Virus record (IMG/VR): IMGVR_UViG_2617270985_000008
DNA: 20,058 bases
Source of the DNA: a virus
Taxonomy: Duplodnaviria; Heunggongvirae; Uroviricota; Caudoviricetes
Reading direction: 5' to 3' (one strand)
Shown: positions 2,343 to 20,058 of the stretch, piece after piece
How positions within the stretch are numbered: position 1 is the first letter of the stretch
How the letters are laid out: each line of letters opens with the position of its first letter
Position numbers and translations under genes: made by a program
The notes under the pieces: model-generated
Databases searched by the model: none
Told to the model about the DNA's origin: nothing
Seen by the model: the letters and a program-made list of their open reading frames with translations, nothing else

Positions 2343-2603
2343 TTAATTCTGAGGTAAAGGCAAACTCATCTGATTGTTTCCCCTGTGTGAAGCTGGCAGC
2401 TCATGCCACGGGATACCTTCCGAAGAGTGAACGCCGGAGGCGTGTTTTGATGTGAATTTATGGAAAGCTTCCAGTGTTGAGAAGCATACGCCGCATTCCA
2501 GGTTGTTACACTGGTAATACTTTTGCCGCACAGTGTTTGAATCGTTTTCCGGACGACTGGTGCGGATTCGGGCAGATGCGCCACAAAGCGGACAACGGAA
2601 CAT
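2343..2603 (-). CDS. ogr: Ogr/Delta-family zinc-finger late-gene transcriptional activator
   Basis: N-terminus MFRCPLCGASARIRTSR...YYQCNNLECGVCF matches the P2 Ogr Cys4 zinc-finger pattern (MFHCPLC...ARTSR...YHQC.N..C). Strong SD GGGAGG 5 nt before the ATG. Confidence 0.85.
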   Translation of the reverse strand: MFRCPLCGASARIRTSRPENDSNTVRQKYYQCNNLECGVCFSTLEAFHKFTSKHASGVHSSEGIPWHELPASHRGNNQMSLPLPQN

Positions 2604-2892
2604 AGCGACCTCCCTTAACGTGGTGCTGCCGCTATTCTAAGTTGTAATAGCTCAGACTCCAACTGACAGTTTGCGCAGCCAGAATACAATCAAACCTAGC
2701 GGTACGCTTTGTGCGAAGAGCGGAAGTTCGCAACTCCAACAACTTTGATAACCTCCGCATAAATGGAAATCGGTTGCTTACATAAGTTTATTGGCTGAGG
2801 TGCATATCGGGAAGCAAGCGGGCAGTGCCATCTTATCTGTTACAATCCCGAAATGATTGTTCAGCCCGCTTTTTCTAACAGCATGTAAACAT

Positions 2893-4032
2893 TCAGCTGC
2901 AAATTTCGTTGTTGCTGCATGTTATCTCTTCAAGTGCAGCGGCGTTATAATCAACGGAATGATCAACCTGTGATGTAGGTCTGCCAAAAAATTCAACCCC
3001 TGACATAATCATGTTGCCGATATTCTCTCGCTGTTTATCACTGAGCCTGTCCCACCACTCAGGGGATGAATATGTATTTTCGGCCTTTGTGAAGAAAAAA
3101 TACAGAAGGGTATTGAACATCCTGTTAGCTGGGATCTTAATTAGTGTCCGTATAAAACGTCTGATAATTGTTGAAGTTCTCAGCCAACTGAACACTACAT
3201 ATCCCTTACCTCCGCAGGAAAAAGCATTGAAACATACTTGTTCCGCCGACACTGTAAGATCGCTCAAATCCTGAATTTTGGTCCCATCGAAATCCCTCTC
3301 CGGTGAAAGAATTGACGAAACTACAATTGGTAAAGGCTCTGCAAAAGTGAAGATAACACTTTCAATTTCTGAAAATTGCCTGCTAAGTAGGATGCGGTCG
3401 AGGCTAGTTTTAAGATTATTTAATTCAATTATTGCTGCATTTAAGCCACTTTGGTGCTGGTCGATTAATTTCTGAATATAATACTGTTCAACTTGTAGCT
3501 TTCCTTTATCGGCATTTTTAGCAAAATCAGAAGATAGCACTCCCCCTTCTTTGGCATAAATTTCTTTAGACAATGAACGAAACATTAAGGCAAAGCACTG
3601 CTCGTCCGTGCCTGTAAATTTTTCGTTCTCTAGGCATGAAAATAAGATTCTGTCATGAACTGCACAAAATCCTGTAAAAGTGGATGCCTGATTGATACCG
3701 ATCTTCTCGGGAAGCCATTTTCCGTTGTTTCTCATCAGGCTTGCTAAGTTCATTATCACCCCCATGACGTGATTGCTGGAGTCGGCGATCGCCTTAAGGC
3801 TACTGCTCTTAGATATCGTATGCGCCTGAACGATGCGTTTATCACAATCTTCGTGCATGGATGCTGGCGCATAACATGCCTTTCTCTGCGAGAGAGACTT
3901 TGAAAATTTCAGTGCCTCGGCTTTGGATACCGGAGTTTCACGATCTCGACCAAGATGGCACTTTTTATACTTAAGTCCTGAATTACACCAGCACTTATCA
4001 TTTCTTCCTAATTTCACTTTATTGTTTCCCAC
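2893..4032 (-). CDS. Hypothetical protein with N-terminal SEC-C zinc-binding motif (prophage cargo)
   Basis: 379-aa ORF in a markedly AT-rich segment between D and ogr. The N-terminus KLGRNDKCWCNSGLKYKKCH resembles the SecA C-terminal SEC-C metal-binding motif. No Walker A or other catalytic motif recognised. Start is GTG at 4032 (or GTG at 4017); no in-frame ATG before the motif. Confidence 0.7.
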   Translation of the reverse strand: MGNNKVKLGRNDKCWCNSGLKYKKCHLGRDRETPVSKAEALKFSKSLSQRKACYAPASMHEDCDKRIVQAHTISKSSSLKAIADSSNHVMGVIMNLASLMRNNGKWLPEKIGINQASTFTGFCAVHDRILFSCLENEKFTGTDEQCFALMFRSLSKEIYAKEGGVLSSDFAKNADKGKLQVEQYYIQKLIDQHQSGLNAAIIELNNLKTSLDRILLSRQFSEIESVIFTFAEPLPIVVSSILSPERDFDGTKIQDLSDLTVSAEQVCFNAFSCGGKGYVVFSWLRTSTIIRRFIRTLIKIPANRMFNTLLYFFFTKAENTYSSPEWWDRLSDKQRENIGNMIMSGVEFFGRPTSQVDHSVDYNAAALEEITCSNNEICS

Positions 4033-13978: not shown

Positions 13979-14509
13979 TTAATCGTCCGGATAAATGGTA
14001 ATAACTTCACCGTCATGAGTTGCCGCCGCTGCAAAAATATCCCCCGGAATTTCCTGAATGATATTCAGCCCTGTCATGTGGCGGCTGACCGGACGGGCAT
14101 CAGCAATCAACCGCTCCATTTCCAGATACATTTCCTCCGTCACGCCACTGTCCAGTGTGCCGACTTCAACGGTAAATGTTCCCGGTTCTCCGCCGAACTC
14201 CCACCACTCAGACACGCGAATGAGGTATCCCAGCGGCTCAATGGCCCTGCGCAGTGCGCTGATGGTCCCTTTGTGTCGGTGTATCAGCCATGCATCACGA
14301 ATCACCTGTCGTTTTGTCTCTTCCGGCCAGTTGCGATCCCAGCGGTCAACGGAAAATGCCCAGGCGAGATAAGGCAGCAGGTGCACCGGGCAGGTGTCCG
14401 GCGACCACAGCGTGTTGAGGTCTACCGGGATGTCTGTAATGCGCGTTCCGACAGCTTCGGCACAACGCATGAAACTGCTGGCTGATGGTGGTAACAGTGA
14501 ATTACTCAT
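13979..14509 (-). CDS. I: Baseplate protein gpI-like
   Basis: 176 aa from ATG 14509 (MSNSLLPP…), overlapping the J stop in an ATGAGTAA arrangement; motifs WSPDTCP..LLPYLAWAFSVDRWD…GYLI…EWWE…PGTF…EMERLIADA…SRH match gpI. The track ORF starts 11 codons earlier. Confidence 0.85.
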   Translation of the reverse strand: MSNSLLPPSASSFMRCAEAVGTRITDIPVDLNTLWSPDTCPVHLLPYLAWAFSVDRWDRNWPEETKRQVIRDAWLIHRHKGTISALRRAIEPLGYLIRVSEWWEFGGEPGTFTVEVGTLDSGVTEEMYLEMERLIADARPVSRHMTGLNIIQEIPGDIFAAAATHDGEVITIYPDD

Positions 14510-15257
14510 TGCGCCCACCTTCGCTGATGGTGAACGACTCACAGCGCGCCGCCTGTATGTCGCTGATGGCCATATTCTGTGTGGGTTCGATTATCTCCAC
14601 GCGTTGCACACCGTGCACATGCAGTGCGGCAGCAATGGCGGACAACGCCACGTCCTGACCGATAAGCCCCTGCTCAGCCAGCCACTTCCTGAACGACGAT
14701 TCAGCCGCCGCCAGAATAGGTTCGGATTCCGGGCCGGGGTAAAAGTACAGTTTTGCATTCAGCCGCCATGTCACGATTCTGGCGCTCTGTACCGTCAGGC
14801 GGTCGGCCACCGGGCGGGTATCCTCTGCATTCAGAACGGCGCGAACGGTATTAAGCAACGCCTCCGTTGCTGTGCCGTCGCCTTCAGTGGACAGGATGGA
14901 AACCGTCACATTTGCCGGAGACGGACTGATAGCCCGCGCATCACGCACCAGACCGCTGGCGCTGCGGGCAAAATACTCGTATGCACCTGACGGGCCAGCA
15001 ACACTCAGGCCATCGTACGCCCGCTGCGCCCGCAGTCTCAGCGAGGTGTCACTTTCCATCACTGCGTCGGTGGTATCCGTTGCCGGAGTGATGGTCAGGC
15101 GCTTTGTGTTCATATTGCCCGCGAGGTTGTCCAGGTCTGTCCCGGCGCTGTGGCTTAACATGCAGGCGCGTGCCCCCTCATTGACCCGCTGGCGTAACGA
15201 GCGTTTCACGGTTATGGAGTTCTGATGAGCAGAAAAAATAAAAAAGTGCGCATGAGT
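14502..15257 (-). pseudogene. J: Baseplate assembly protein gpJ, 5'-truncated remnant
   Basis: Translation (…RQRVNEGARA…MESDTSLRLRAQRAYDGLSVAG…RPVADRLTVQSA…YFYPGPESEPI…HVHGVQRVE…) matches roughly the C-terminal 220 aa of gpJ. Homology stops near 15210-15250, where the opposite-strand Q start abuts; about 85 N-terminal codons are missing. Confidence 0.75.
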
Positions 15258-15959
15258 TCACGCATTGATCTCGCTGATGCGCTCAGGAAAGAATCATCGC
15301 TCAGTGCATTCACATTTGATGGTCCTTATCGCCTGACCGGGCATGACCTGCTGGACAATATGTACTGTGCTGATAACGGGCGGTGGTATGAAACCCCGGT
15401 GGACTGGTACGGTCTGGCAAGAGCCGCCCGGCAAACGTCCTGGCATCAGTCTGCGCTTTACTTTAAGCGCAATGTATTGCTCGGTTGCTACATCCCGCAC
15501 CCGCTGCTTTCCCGGCAGGATTTCTCGGCGCTGGCGCTGGACTGGTTTGTGTTCGGTAACGCATTCCTTGAGCTTCGAAGCAATATGCTCGGCGAACCGC
15601 TTAAATTACGGCACGCCCTGGCGAAATACATGCGACGCGGAAGCGATCTTGAATCATGGTGGTATGTGCAGGATGGCAAGGATGCGTTTCAGTTTCGCCC
15701 AGGCAAAGTGTGCCACCTGATGAATCCGGACATTAACCAGGAAATCTACGGCATGCCGGAATATCTCGGCGCATTACTCTCGGCCAGCCTGTCTCATTCG
15801 GCGGACATGTTCAGAAAACTGTATTACGACAACGGATCCCACGCCGGGTGCATCATCTACATCGGTGCAGCGCAGGTAAACCGCGAAAGCATGGACTCCC
15901 TGAAAGAAACGCTACAGGGTGCGCGTGGTGGTGGTGCGTTTCACGTCCTCTGGAGGTGA
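15225..15959 (+). pseudogene. Q: Portal protein gpQ, 3'-truncated remnant
   Basis: 244-aa ORF with portal motifs (…NGRWYE…YFKRNVL…IPHPLLS.QDF…FGNAFLE…DINQEIYGMPEYL…YYDNGSHAG…) corresponding to roughly the N-terminal 70% of a P2-type portal; ends in unrelated sequence. Confidence 0.75.
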
Positions 15960-17101: not shown

Positions 17102-17305
17102 TTAGCTGTTAGCCAAAGCGTCTTTTAACATCGCCACAAGGTTTACTTCAGGCTTTTCCATTTTGGCGCGTTTGGGGCGGATAATAATTCGACCGTCAGC
17201 CAACATCTTTTTGCATGTATTAAGAGGGATACCTGTTATCTCTGCATATTTCTGCAGGGATACATAGGGGGCATTCACATTGATATTGATGGTTATACCT
17301 GACAT
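17102..17305 (-). CDS. Cox/Apl-like small DNA-binding protein (putative excisionase/regulator)
   Basis: 67 aa; the segment PYVSLQKYAEITGIPLNTCKKMLADGRI resembles the HTH region of P2 Cox (PYQEFAKLIGKSTGAVRRMIDKGKLP); position in the early operon fits. Confidence 0.55.
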   Translation of the reverse strand: MSGITININVNAPYVSLQKYAEITGIPLNTCKKMLADGRIIIRPKRAKMEKPEVNLVAMLKDALANS

Positions 17306-17321: not shown

Positions 17322-17528
17322 TCAGGAAGATTTGTTTTGTTCTTTCTGGGTTAGCTCTAGGCCGCGAAGGAAGATCATGCGCGCCATGTTAGAGGATGAG
17401 CGTTGTTCTTTAGCTGCCATTTCATCAATGACGGCTCGCTCCTCGAGGGACAGCCGAAGTGCCAGTCTTGGACCTGTGGCGGTGTTACGCGGAATGCGTG
17501 ATCTGGTATCGTGAAGAACTTGTTTCAT
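17322..17528 (-). CDS. Ribbon-helix-helix (Arc/CopG-like) DNA-binding protein, first gene of the leftward early operon
   Basis: 68 aa; RLALRLSLEERAVIDEMAAKEQRSSSNMARMIFLRGLE fits a beta-strand/helix/helix RHH fold; divergent from the XRE repressor across a 75-bp control region. Confidence 0.5.
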   Translation of the reverse strand: MKQVLHDTRSRIPRNTATGPRLALRLSLEERAVIDEMAAKEQRSSSNMARMIFLRGLELTQKEQNKSS

Positions 17529-17570
17529 AGTGGTATATTGTGATCATCTAATAGCTCGTGAAATCATTTT

Positions 17571-17588
17571 GGTATCAAAAAAGATACC
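17571..17588. promoter_or_regulatory. Candidate operator: perfect inverted repeat GGTATC-AAAAAA-GATACC in the divergent control region
   Basis: Lies in the 75-bp interval between the RHH and repressor start codons; a further GGTATA half-site at 17532-17537 and a TGATCA palindrome at 17541-17546. Confidence 0.4.
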
Positions 17589-17603
17589 TGTAAAGGTTTT
17601 TGT

Positions 17604-18008
17604 ATGAAAAATGATATTGGTCAGCGGTTGCGTGAGGAAAGGGAAAGATTGGGACTTAGTCAAGTTGCCATGAGCGACATTGGTGGAGTCAAAAAGCTAA
17701 CTCAGCTTAGATATGAGAAAGGAGATAGCTTTCCTGATGCTGCGTATTTGGCAGCGCTGTCTCGTTTTGGCCTTGATGTTCAGTATGTTGTGTTGGGAAT
17801 TCACTCACCTGAAACTTATAACGATGATGAGCAGGAGTTGATTACTCGCTTTCGAGCAGCTTCGTTAGATGTGAAAAACGCGGTGATCGGGGCTTTAAAA
17901 GGTGCGATCAGTGAAAAGGAAACTCAGCCATCAGGACGTGAGTTAAATATTTCTGGTGGTAATAACCGTATCGCTGGTCGTGACTATAACGAAACTAAGG
18001 GTAGGTGA
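17604..18008 (+). CDS. XRE-family helix-turn-helix repressor (P2 C / CI-like immunity repressor)
   Basis: 134 aa; N-terminal IGQRLREERERLGLSQVAMSD…YEKG is a canonical HTH_XRE; first gene of the operon ending in int, as in P2 (C-int). The C-terminus carries the GGNNRIAGRDYNE motif. Confidence 0.75.
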   Translation: MKNDIGQRLREERERLGLSQVAMSDIGGVKKLTQLRYEKGDSFPDAAYLAALSRFGLDVQYVVLGIHSPETYNDDEQELITRFRAASLDVKNAVIGALKGAISEKETQPSGRELNISGGNNRIAGRDYNETKGR

Positions 18009-18023: not shown

Positions 18024-18674
18024 ATGGCCGTCAACTCAAACGGTTCAAACAATCGCGTTGCTGGGCGTGATTTTCACGAAAAGAAAATTCAGATAGAGCG
18101 ATATGATGGTTCTCATACCGTCAATATCGCAATCCCTTCGAATAATGATGATGACGATCGCCCTTTGCTTAAGGCTCAGCGTAAGGAGCTAAATAGCTTG
18201 GTTGCTGCTATTGCAGAAGCTAGCAATACTGAAGCGTTTATTATTTGGCAAAAAGTACATGCGGAGATTGGTGTAGCTGGTATTGATGATATGACAGTAA
18301 ATCAATATAAAACAGCGGAGAGTTTTCTGCATGCAATGCTTGAGCGATGTAAAGATCATGATGCCTGTAAGACTCTTGTAAGTTTATTACTACGTAACAG
18401 TGAAGACTGTGGACTTCGACAAAAACTTCTGCGGTATTGCCATATCAATTTCGGTACAGGACGTTTAAACGATCTTACTCGTTCTCAGTTACAGTCTGCA
18501 TTGTCGTGGTTAGAGCAACAATCGGCATCAAGTCACACAGAGAGTTCGGCCTTACCAGAAGTTCGACTTCGTGCTTCAGAATTAATCCGACTTTATCCAA
18601 AAGAAATAATATTCTTTATCTGCGTAGGGGTTTTGGTAGGCGGTGCCATTTCTAGGGTGTTTTTTAATTTGTAA
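18024..18674 (+). CDS. Hypothetical tail-anchored membrane protein (216 aa) sharing an N-terminal motif with the repressor C-terminus
   Basis: Strong SD GGGAGG 4 nt before the ATG; N-terminus NGSNNRVAGRDFHE repeats the repressor C-terminal motif; C-terminal TM helix IIFFICVGVLVGGAI. Same reading frame as the repressor, separated by TGA-TAG-TAG. Confidence 0.6.
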   Translation: MAVNSNGSNNRVAGRDFHEKKIQIERYDGSHTVNIAIPSNNDDDDRPLLKAQRKELNSLVAAIAEASNTEAFIIWQKVHAEIGVAGIDDMTVNQYKTAESFLHAMLERCKDHDACKTLVSLLLRNSEDCGLRQKLLRYCHINFGTGRLNDLTRSQLQSALSWLEQQSASSHTESSALPEVRLRASELIRLYPKEIIFFICVGVLVGGAISRVFFNL

Positions 18675-18703: not shown

Positions 18704-19051
18704 ATGAAAGTAAAAAAGGTTCAACTATTAGTTACTTTTTTATCTATGTTTTCTTTTTCCGCCGTCGCAATGCCTTTTAAAACTATTGAACGTGAGAGTT
18801 TCAATGGGGTATGGCCATTTAATACTGATGAGGTTCAATTACAGTGTCTTGATGGTAATCCTTATGTGATGAATTTTGACGATAATAAGTTATATGCGCT
18901 TACAGGTTTAGCTCGAATAAAAGGTAAAACATTTGGTGCGTTACCGTTAGATAACAATAATCCATTTTGGCTAGATAATGATGCCGCCCCAGGGTTAAAA
19001 AAGAGTCTGGGGGATGTCACTAAGGCTGCATTTGATTTATGTGATAAGTAA
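18704..19051 (+). CDS. Hypothetical secreted/periplasmic protein (115 aa, signal peptide)
   Basis: MKVKKVQLLVTFLSMFSFSAVA signal peptide; mature protein with two Cys (possible disulfide); SD GAGG 7 nt upstream; AT-rich. Confidence 0.6.
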   Translation: MKVKKVQLLVTFLSMFSFSAVAMPFKTIERESFNGVWPFNTDEVQLQCLDGNPYVMNFDDNKLYALTGLARIKGKTFGALPLDNNNPFWLDNDAAPGLKKSLGDVTKAAFDLCDK

Positions 19052-19056
19052 CTAAA

Positions 19057-20058
19057 ATGTCGGTTCGTAAGATTCCATCAGGTAAATGGCTTTGCGAATG
19101 TTATCCCTACGGGGCATCGGGAAAACGCATTCGTAAACAGTTTGCGACAAAAAGTGAGGCGCTCTCTTATGAGCGCCGTTTAATGAATAGTAGAGTTGGA
19201 GACGAGTTTCAAGATGGTTCTGGTCCTCGTCTTTCTGAGTTGATTGCTCGTTGGTTTGAGATGTACGGTAAAACCTTGTCCTCTGGTGCAGAGCGCAAAG
19301 TCAAACTTGAGGCGATTTGTTCCAGGCTGGGGGATCCATTTGCTTCTCAGTTTGACAAAAATATGTTTGCTACTTATCGGGAAAGAAGGCTATCAGGAGA
19401 ATGGAATCCCAAGGGGAAGAAAAAACTTAGTGAAGCAACCGTTAATCGCGAGCAGTCATATCTACATGCTGTTTTTGCCGAACTGAAGCGCCTTGGGGAG
19501 TGGTCTGGTGAAAACCCCCTGACTGGTATTCGCAAGTTTCGTGAGGAAGAAAAGGAACTGGCGTTTCTGTATGTAGATGAGATTGAACGCCTTCTGATTG
19601 CGTGTGATGAGTCACGGAATAAAGATTTGGGGGTTGTTGTCCGTATTGGGCTTGCGACTGGTGCTCGGTGGAGTGAAGCTGAAGGATTAAAGCAATCTCA
19701 AGTACTGCCCGGTCGAATCACATTTGTTAAAACTAAAGGAAAGAAGAACCGCACTGTACCGATTTCACCTCAATTGCAGGCTATGCTTCCTCAAAAACGA
19801 GGAGCGCTATTTTCACCATGTTATGAGGCTTTTGACGCTGCAATTAAGAGAGCGAAGATCGAGCTTCCTGATGGGCAATTAACTCATGTGCTACGTCACA
19901 CGTTTGCCAGTCATTTTATGATGCGGGGCGGAAATATTCTTGTGTTGCAAAAAATACTGGGGCATAGCGATATAAAAATGACTATGCGTTATGCGCATTT
20001 TGCTCCAGGTCATTTAGAGGCTGCTGTTGAATTGAACCCTTTTGACAATAGAGGGTAA
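19057..20058 (+). CDS. int: Tyrosine recombinase, P2-type phage integrase
   Basis: 333 aa; matches to P2 Int throughout (GKRIRKQF.TKSEA…, RLSEL, GLATGARW.EA, ITFVKTKGKKNRTVPIS, HVLRHTFASHFMMRGGNILVLQKILGHSDIKMTMRYAHFAP). The window ends at its TAA. Confidence 0.9.
   Translation: MSVRKIPSGKWLCECYPYGASGKRIRKQFATKSEALSYERRLMNSRVGDEFQDGSGPRLSELIARWFEMYGKTLSSGAERKVKLEAICSRLGDPFASQFDKNMFATYRERRLSGEWNPKGKKKLSEATVNREQSYLHAVFAELKRLGEWSGENPLTGIRKFREEEKELAFLYVDEIERLLIACDESRNKDLGVVVRIGLATGARWSEAEGLKQSQVLPGRITFVKTKGKKNRTVPISPQLQAMLPQKRGALFSPCYEAFDAAIKRAKIELPDGQLTHVLRHTFASHFMMRGGNILVLQKILGHSDIKMTMRYAHFAPGHLEAAVELNPFDNRG

Follow-up and report, generated by a model that had tools for sequence, protein, structure and literature searches.

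The 75-bp interval at positions 17529–17603 of a 20,058-nt stretch of viral DNA (IMG/VR record IMGVR_UViG_2617270985_000008, referred to as a whole as the window) is likely to be a compact lysis–lysogeny switch of the P2/186 style in a Xuanwuvirus-like prophage, in which an XRE-type repressor would act on a single operator and the two promoters would face each other. The interval separates the ATG of a minus-strand 68-aa ORF (17528–17526) from the ATG of the XRE gene (17604), a spacing of exactly 75 bp. The initial annotation had recognized here the architecture of an immunity switch between an RHH/Cox-like operon and the XRE operon; the switch and the divergent genes are upheld by our analysis, whereas back-to-back promoters are not.

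The closest phages belong to Xuanwuvirus (Peduoviridae), and with Escherichia phage 520873 the window DNA shares 94% identity. The window was matched in 524 of 5426 complete E. coli genomes, many of the carriers being STEC, and the identity reached at least 99% in 482 complete E. coli genomes. In the carriers, a tRNA 3′ end is the site of the prophage, which neighbors yecA; both O26 strain 11368 and phage 520873 have the tRNA-3′-end attachment site and yecA after int. On the plus strand of the window, the genes run in the order XRE, a 216-aa membrane protein, DUF2511 and a P2-type integrase, and on the minus strand in the order 68-aa ORF, 67-aa ORF, DUF4761, a gene of unknown function and DUF4754. 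The repressor gene is therefore the first of an int-ending operon that diverges from the early operon in a P2-like phage. The features of the locus are collected in Table 1.

Table 1. Positions of the features assigned in and around the switch interval (numbering of the window).
Feature	Position	Strand	Basis
Cox/Apl-like protein, 67 aa, second early gene	17102–17305	−	PHROG 575
Putative RHH (Arc-like) protein, 68 aa, first early gene, candidate lytic-side repressor	17322–17528	−	PHROG 3431
Weak −35 GTGAAG of the TGGTATATT promoter	17511–17516	+	
Best-conserved non-coding block CATAGTGGTATATTGTGATCATCTAAT	17526–17552		Alignment of 11 RHH-type loci
Candidate extended −10 TGGTATATT of the repressor promoter, predicted start ~17546	17531–17539	+	Promoter scoring, conservation
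Alternative or second rightward promoter: TTGTGA (17538–17543), 18 bp, TG (17559–17560), AATCAT (17562–17567)	17538–17567	+	Second-ranked
Lytic −10 CAAAAT, 17-bp spacer, predicted start ~17559	17566–17571	−	Promoter scan and 20 loci
Operator O, GGTATC-A6-GATACC, predicted XRE dimer site	17571–17588		Sequence and comparison
Lytic −35 TTTACA	17589–17594	−	Promoter scan; TTGACA in relatives
Repressor-gene AAGG, Shine-Dalgarno-like; overlaps the lytic −35	17593–17596	+	Sequence; AAGG/AGAG conserved
XRE-type immunity repressor, 134 aa	17604–18008	+	Pfam, PDB, AF2, Foldseek
C-tail-anchored Flk_N-like membrane protein of 216 aa, second gene of the repressor operon	18024–18674	+	NCBIfam Flk, E 9e-16
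DUF2511 gene	18704–19051	+	Repressor operon
P2-type tyrosine integrase, final gene of the repressor operon	19057–20058	+	Pfam Int_N, Phage_integrase

Three motifs were read in the interval: the dyad GGTATC-AAAAAA-GATACC, GGTATA (17532–17537) and TGATCA (17541–17546). Direct reading confirmed where the initial annotation had placed all three, as well as the 75-bp gap between the start codons. Its description of the dyad as a perfect 18-bp palindrome had to be corrected, as only the 6-bp arms are complementary, the A6 center is asymmetric and 12 of the 18 positions are symmetric. Perfect inverted repeats with 6-bp arms and a gap of 0–10 bp number 82 in the window (0.31 per 75 bp), with about 54 in each shuffled window, and the dyad by itself is no rarer than chance. 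The exact dyad pattern, with at most two mismatches allowed, occurs twice in the window against 0.32 expected; the word TGGTATM is present in eight copies where 3.1 would be expected, three of the eight falling inside a 67-bp stretch, and a TGGTATC copy at 17504 is lost even in close relatives. A candidate second operator, TGTATTAAGAGGGATACC (17216–33, two mismatches), lies inside the Cox-like gene and recurs only in the related locus L067; it was rejected, since it encodes the conserved GIPxxT and coding constraint explains the weak site. It is only through comparative data that the dyad acquires significance.

For this comparison, related loci were gathered through the XRE protein, giving about 25 distinct loci. 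In every one of them, the best inverted repeat upstream of the repressor lies approximately 33 to 16 nt before the start codon, and in all loci that encode the helix VKKLTQL, the core GGTAT-N8-ATACC spans positions −33 to −16 relative to the repressor ATG. Across nine specificity classes, the half-site varies symmetrically with the recognition helix. VKKLTQL is paired with the half-site GGTAT(C/A) in E. coli, Yersinia, Gilliamella, Pectobacterium and Salmonella; IRKQTQL is found with GGTACG-A6-CGTACC, VKKWTQI with GGTGTG-A6-CACACC, VQKQAQL with GTACGCAAATGCGTAC, VSRKTLF with GGGTAG-A4-CTACCC, VSRESWG with GAGATC-AATA-GATCTC, VSTKTWG with GGAA-N6-TTCC, VSFRAYC with TTTGC-N8-GCAAA, and a different, CI-type HTH with AGTCAAGATATCTTGACT. 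A symmetry test within the GGT group revealed that 98.8% of cells were paired and that three of the six pairs had changed on both sides. The covariation score of the arms was reached by none of 500 shuffles and collapsed in slid registers. Each locus carries one dyad, unlike the multiple adjacent operators and distal flanking sites of 186 CI-type repressors.

The position of the dyad relative to the early promoter is equally constant. A promoter scan of the window found a single promoter there, TTTACA-17-CAAAAT, with the dyad as its spacer. In the 20 loci scored, which span E. coli, Yersinia, Arsenophonus, Gilliamella, Pectobacterium and Pseudomonas, the −35 of relatives is TTGAC(A/T/G) at the equivalent position, and their −10 reads CAnAAT, CATAAT or CATACT, with A2 and T6 in all scored loci. 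The inverted repeat forms the 17- or 18-bp spacer of this lytic promoter in all 20, and the dyad fills the spacer in the loci added later too. The predicted repressor operator overlaps the lytic promoter, as in switches of the P2/186 kind. Its place in the lytic-promoter spacer and its symmetric change with the recognition helix make the dyad a strong operator candidate for the XRE immunity repressor, and, judged from these comparisons, GGTATC-A6-GATACC is very probably the single operator of that repressor, inside the lytic promoter. Of the repeats originally put forward as candidate operators, the dyad is thus retained for its conserved position and for a half-site that tracks helix 3, but GGTATA and TGATCA are not.

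The geometry of the repressor promoter is constrained by the 9 nt that separate the lytic −35 from the repressor ATG. Because this −35 is so close to the ATG and lies over the Shine-Dalgarno-like sequence, the repressor mRNA should start to its left; a repressor start left of the operator means in turn that the promoters would be face-to-face or overlapping, and a back-to-back divergent arrangement would be impossible. The facing promoters are predicted here from conserved hexamers and the lack of room, with two rightward candidates. The favored one is the extended −10 TGGTATATT, which contains the GGTATA motif and lies 5 nt from the first early gene, its −35 being within that gene. Of the plus-strand promoters, TGnTATATT scored highest in most of the RHH-type loci included in the scoring, and TGnTA(T/C)ATT (n = G, A or T) is shared by 13 of 14 loci of the RHH type, irrespective of their operators; TGnTATATT is present beside the operators GGTACG, GGTGTG, GAGATC, GGAA (AGGGAA) and TTTGC. 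In phage 520873 and 14 IMG/VR locus entries (from two overlapping scans, with some contigs counted twice), GATATA replaces GGTATA and TG-n-TATATT is intact. Since the nonamer is kept beside unrelated operators, GGTATA is better read as part of an extended −10 than as an XRE half-site, and its assignment as an operator half-site is withdrawn. TGATCA reads TGATCC, TGTTCA or TGAACC in relatives, so the supposed operator palindrome is incidental; the GATC embedded in it is often retained. No common rightward promoter could be defined in the loci without RHH and Cox.

It is possible, though doubtful, that the repressor is instead transcribed from TTGTGA-18-TGAAATCAT, with a −10 that overlaps the lytic −10 and a start near 17574, inside the operator, in which case the repressor would shut both promoters, its own under tight negative autoregulation, and these would compete by overlap and not through collision. 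This sequence ranks second among the plus-strand candidates in the window and in four related loci (L001, L066, L067 and L073), its −35 falls within the highly conserved block, and in Pectobacterium loci the best rightward candidate, TGGTAGATT, has the corresponding position, immediately left of the dyad. However, the AATCAT −10 is weak and is absent from L060 and L094, both of which keep the operator, and TGnTATATT is better conserved than TGAAATCAT; both promoters could also coexist. A layout of back-to-back promoters under several XRE sites (the dyad, GGTATA and TGATCA) is improbable. The clustering of three TGGTAT(A/C) words within 67 bp, against 3.1 copies expected per window, would suit such a layout, but GGTATA accompanies unrelated operators, the copy at 17504 is not conserved, TGATCA varies, and the 9 nt between the lytic −35 and the ATG leave no room for a back-to-back promoter.

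Two further readings dispense with the XRE protein as the ligand of the dyad, and we consider both very improbable. In the first, the dyad would form an RNA hairpin in the repressor mRNA leader and control translation or stability. It does lie within the predicted leader, 15 nt upstream of the ATG, and its arms show compensatory changes, including two G-U-compatible variants; symmetric covariation is expected of a hairpin as well. Yet the hairpin is unused in the minimum-free-energy fold of the leader, a fold that is itself not unusual (z = −1.1), its stems are AT-rich and of 4–9 bp, and an Rfam search gave no match. Moreover, an RNA role predicts neither the fixed place relative to the −35 and −10 of the opposite strand nor the tracking of the recognition helix. 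In the second, the dyad would be an operator with which RHH or the Cox-like protein autoregulates the early promoter. Such autorepression is a property of P2 Cox and 186 Apl, and RHH proteins bind dyads. However, Gilliamella, Pectobacterium and Pseudomonas loci in which a small (63–100 aa) unrelated lytic-side protein replaces RHH and Cox keep the dyad, and L093, L094 and the window encode near-identical RHH and Cox proteins beside unrelated dyads that match their differing XRE proteins. Its persistence without RHH and Cox indicates that the dyad travels with the XRE gene; as it follows XRE and not RHH/Cox, the latter are excluded as its binder and XRE is the natural candidate.

The repressor itself comprises an HTH (residues 5–64), a two-helix C-terminal domain (74–105) and a disordered tail ending in NNRIAGRDYNETKGR. 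It matched Pfam HTH_31, HTH_19 and HTH_3, all below the curated cut-off, and P22 c2 in the PDB (E 0.011). AF2 modeling returned a five-helix HTH with pLDDT >90 over residues 11–60, and Foldseek aligned the HTH with the P22 c2–operator complex at a TM of 0.83–0.85; SinR (1b0n) was the best full-length structural match. The predicted operator is dyad-symmetric, as in dimeric repressors of the lambda-repressor-like (XRE/HTH_3) type. The protein is outside the P2 C, 186 CI and LexA-like families. Pfam, NCBIfam and the AF2 model revealed no S24 peptidase domain in it, and no LexA box was found within the window. Given the lack of both an autocleavage domain and a LexA box, induction, if any, would proceed by another route; like P2, the phage is not directly SOS-cleavable. 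Arrays of two to four paralogous repressors that differ in their recognition helices occur in some relatives.

The NNRIAGRDYNE motif of the repressor tail also opens the Flk_N-like membrane protein, on whose orthologues PF27202 is recorded. The two copies of the motif co-vary across genera: in Gilliamella, GQISAGNIYNN goes with EQVAGENIINV, in Pectobacterium GQFAGNQIINN goes with GQFSSRDIINI, and elsewhere NNRVAGRDY goes with NNRVAGRDY. Synonymous differences separate the two copies, a sign that selection acts on the protein. The shared motif is more unusual than the operator itself. A third layer of the switch, in which the membrane protein mimics or captures the repressor tail and couples immunity or induction to an envelope signal, is a speculative and rather unlikely idea; the membrane protein could then act through titration of the repressor, competition for a protease or partner, or tethering of the repressor to the membrane. 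RgdR, a prophage regulator named after RGD, was considered and found to be unrelated, as it belongs to a different prophage and has its motif at residues 20–22.

On the lytic side, the 68-aa ORF matched PHROG 3431, 'Arc-like repressor' (E 1e-28), and is conserved in Yersinia and Arsenophonus loci at 38–49% identity; by this conservation, it is a real gene. Its profile also matched, weakly, the RHH part of the antitoxin KacA/TacA (E 0.011), and on these two matches it is a putative RHH protein. Searches with the single sequence gave no Pfam or PDB match, and a single-sequence scan for relatives recovered close copies only, nine database proteins matching. The AF2 monomer is one long helix (pTM 0.33) and is uninformative. 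The gene has no recognizable Shine-Dalgarno sequence and is omitted from the PGAP annotation of O26 strain 11368. The 67-aa protein matched PHROG 575, 'Cox-like excisionase and repressor' (E 1e-27), and hhalign related it to 186 Apl with 78% probability (41% identity over 27 residues) and to P2 Cox with 64% probability. On these profile matches, it is a real Cox/Apl relative, probably an excisionase and possibly also a co-repressor.

The likeliest place for RHH and/or Cox binding is the 27-bp block CATAGTGGTATATTGTGATCATCTAAT, which takes in, besides the RHH start codon and the candidate extended −10, the TGATCA/GATC site and the region where both transcripts would start. Among 11 RHH-type loci, its conservation exceeds that of the neighboring RHH coding sequence, and it is also retained in three others (L150, L151 and L153). 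Between the promoters, no convincing repeat pattern typical of RHH or Cox/Apl binding and no direct repeats with 10–11 bp phasing were found. An RHH operator TA(A/G)TGG-N11-CCA(C/T)TA and TTGT...CAT words spaced by 18 bp, both picked out by eye, were rejected as weak and poorly conserved. Cox boxes common to att were rejected as well: only AAATCAT, which forms an inverted pair in the int-side att arm, is shared with that arm, and a single 7-mer in common is what chance predicts for two AT-rich stretches of 100 nt. The att comparison covers the int-side arm, the other att end being absent from the phage 520873 record.

In the switch that we favor, with the XRE repressor on one operator between facing promoters, the early operon of RHH, Cox-like and DUF4761 genes would very likely be transcribed leftward from the sigma-70 promoter, and an XRE dimer bound to the dyad through helix 3 (VKKLTQL) would, with similar likelihood, exclude RNA polymerase and so confer immunity. 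The repressor operon (XRE, Flk_N-like, DUF2511 and int) probably starts left of the operator, most likely at TGGTATATT. The facing starts would then be only ~13 bp apart, so that both promoters could not be occupied together. Repression of the strong lytic promoter would be expected to relieve interference on the weak repressor promoter, and repressor bound between about +25 and +42 in the leader of its own mRNA could damp its synthesis. After lytic firing, RHH and/or the Cox-like protein may shut the repressor promoter through the conserved block.

Face-to-face promoters 40–60 bp apart, with RDF sites between them, are described for P2-like phages (PMC7498355; PMC1904263), among which diverse regulatory regions are already recognized (PMC3448106). 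Our literature search found no study on this switch, on Xuanwuvirus immunity or on Flk-like prophage proteins, and no reports of transcription starts, binding or expression in this phage group. Here, 26 bp separate the predicted −10 hexamers (P2, 49 bp; 186, 76 bp), and facing promoters served by a single operator would make this the most compact form of the P2/186 design. In the annotated records of both 186 and P2, the lytic −35 adjoins the repressor start, as it does here, and the first early gene contains the lysogenic −35 and is ~5 nt away from the lysogenic −10, as is predicted here.

The pR–pL region of 186 shares with our locus the order int, repressor, divergent early operon, and is like the layout predicted here in having face-to-face promoters, a repressor (CI) on inverted repeats over the lytic promoter and an early protein of the Cox/Apl family. 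It differs in scale (a 129-bp interval with starts ~62 bp apart, against 75 bp and a predicted ~13 bp) and in carrying three CI sites at pR plus FL and FR, where we found one dyad. The 186 CI has a wheel-forming C-terminal domain and Apl seven direct repeats, whereas the repressor here is an unrelated XRE protein; 186 further possesses CII/pE and SOS induction via Tum, and no cII-like gene or LexA box was seen in our locus. The Pe–Pc switch of P2, also from Peduoviridae, has face-to-face promoters with the Pe −35 abutting the C start, features shared with the predicted layout, and a small non-cleavable repressor with a Cox-family protein, as here. P2 C, however, binds two direct repeats flanking the −10 rather than a dyad in the promoter spacer, and resembles the XRE repressor only at the level of fold (2xcj, TM 0.67). 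In P2 and 186, Cox/Apl is the first early gene, whereas RHH comes first here and Cox-like second.

Recognition of the operator by the repressor would resemble that in P22 c2 and 434, which share the five-helix lambda-repressor-like HTH with the XRE protein (the best PDB matches being P22 c2–operator) and have an 18-bp operator with contacted 6-bp arms and an A/T-rich center over the lytic promoter. Those repressors carry an S24 domain and act on OR1-3 and OL1-3, whereas ours has a two-helix C-terminal unit, a conserved disordered tail and one operator, and their PRM/PR promoters are back-to-back, not face-to-face as predicted here. SinR of the Bacillus SinR/SinI pair (1b0n) joins an XRE HTH to a small helical oligomerization domain, as the repressor does, with no sequence relationship. 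There, antagonist and repressor share a segment, which resembles the shared tail motif of the present locus; the SinR/SinI segment is a helical hook, whereas the tail here is disordered and its antagonism hypothetical. The departures from the P2/186 scheme are RHH ahead of cox, the single dyad and the 75-bp interval, and the locus is an uncharacterized variant of a well-known kind of switch, with an XRE repressor, RHH before Cox and a single operator.

The copy in the window differs from its relatives. Position 17592 is A in the window and C in O26 strain 11368 and all IMG/VR copies; this change, private to the window, converts the lytic −35 from the consensus TTGACA to TTTACA. None of 520 E. 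coli carriers is identical to the window across 17450–17700. Left of ~15940, the window diverges from the intact prophage and is joined to a portal-gene fragment, a junction found in no complete E. coli genome. The prophage copy is truncated and defective, and its lytic promoter is probably weakened by TTTACA. With a weakened −35 in a truncated prophage, the switch of this copy is probably locked off.

A switch is otherwise an expected feature of a temperate phage. Our results provide a testable operator and promoter map for a prophage present in about 10% of complete E. coli genomes, its carriers including STEC strains of O26, O103, O111, O145 and O157; databases know its repressor family only as "XRE family" and mostly leave the RHH gene without annotation. 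The nine pairs of helix and half-site constitute a natural specificity series, in which the GGTATC, GGTACG and GGTGTG classes are a few helix 3 residues apart, making them useful for studying or engineering heteroimmunity.

The C-terminal tail of the 134-aa XRE-type repressor, which is disordered by prediction, shares a short motif with the N-terminus of the protein encoded by the next gene downstream. BLASTP aligned the tail (ISGGNNRIAGRDYNETK) with this N-terminus (NGSNNRVAGRDFHEKK) over 19 aa with an E value of 7e-6, and the same tail/N-terminus pair was detected in the related loci L003, L009, L010, L011, L012, L066, L070, L072, L090, L097, L151 and L153. The two copies co-vary between genera: in Gilliamella the tail reads GQISAGNIYNN and the next-gene copy EQVAGENIINV, while the Pectobacterium pair is GQFAGNQIINN and GQFSSRDIINI. 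In the window, the two copies use a different third base in five of the nine codons that specify identical residues, so conservation of the motif acts on the protein. Possible roles include binding of a common partner, mimicry or titration.

This next gene, which shares a transcript with the repressor gene, encodes a Flk-like protein of 216 aa (NCBIfam Flk, E = 9e-16) whose orthologues carry PF27202 (Flk_N) and whose C-terminus holds a membrane anchor. The occurrence of a flagellar-export regulator homologue within a prophage immunity operon was unexpected.

On the lytic side, RefSeq/PGAP leaves the conserved gene of the Arc-like RHH protein unannotated in the O26:H11 strain 11368 and has an opposite-strand ORF of 46 aa in its place. 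Only 9 proteins in a collection of 5.8 billion matched this RHH protein; the family is thus largely missing from protein databases.

Within the switch, the word AAATCAT occurs as the single copy in the 20-kb window, and elsewhere in the related locus L002 it is found only in the inverted pair AAATCATAAGGTTATGATTT of the int-side att arm. This word could belong to a Cox site, but its sharing between switch and att arm is within chance expectation. The Pseudomonas relatives L012 and L090 carry a second 18-bp dyad, AAGATTC-ATAA-GAATCTT, between about -72 and -55 relative to the repressor start and close to where the divergent lytic-side gene begins, and this dyad is a candidate operator for the regulator encoded by that gene. 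No equivalent was found in the RHH-type loci, i.e., those with RHH and Cox-like early genes. The Dam site of the switch is retained in most, not all, RHH-type relatives, having been lost in L062 and L073.

In almost every specificity class, the strand that encodes the repressor is A-rich at the centre of the predicted repressor operator, with the forms A6, A4, TAAAAAC and AAAAAACC. This is a conserved asymmetry inside an otherwise symmetric operator, and it puts a T-tract into the lytic promoter spacer.

Positions of the features in the window and in related loci
Feature	Locus	Position	Remark
Motif, repressor C-terminal tail	window	17946-18002	
Motif, next gene's N-terminus	window	18030-18086	
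Flk-like gene	window	18024-18674	
RHH gene	window	17322-17528	
46-aa ORF	L002	4278-4415	opposite strand to RHH
AAATCAT	window	17561-17567	within switch
AAATCAT inverted pair	L002	7026-7045	int-side att arm
Dam site GATC	window	17542-17545	at predicted repressor transcript start; also -35 of alternative promoter
Operator centre	window	17577-17582	
Portal-gene fragment	window	15225-15959	
Baseplate fragment	window	14502-15209	
Tandem repressor paralogues	L150 (Salmonella)	1098-2660	
Tandem repressor paralogues	L011 (Arsenophonus)	2495-3390	

This prophage copy carries a private C-to-A change at 17592, which turns the consensus lytic promoter -35 TTGACA, present in O26 strain 11368 and all IMG/VR copies, into TTTACA; no complete E. 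coli genome was identical to the window across 17450-17700. The change is probably a promoter-down mutation, in a prophage that is decaying. The early region ends abruptly at about 15937-15940, joined to the portal-gene and baseplate fragments, and the replication genes of O26 strain 11368 and phage 520873 are absent from the window. Since this junction was absent from all 5426 complete E. coli genomes, it is either a deletion or rearrangement specific to the strain or the product of an assembly join.

In the Salmonella and Arsenophonus relatives, a single lysogenic operon holds two to four repressor paralogues, one apparent pseudogene included. Each carries a recognition helix of its own (VKKLTQL, VAFRTYC and VSRETWG types) and has the tail motif at its end. 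Such repressor arrays may provide multi-immunity against heteroimmune relatives.
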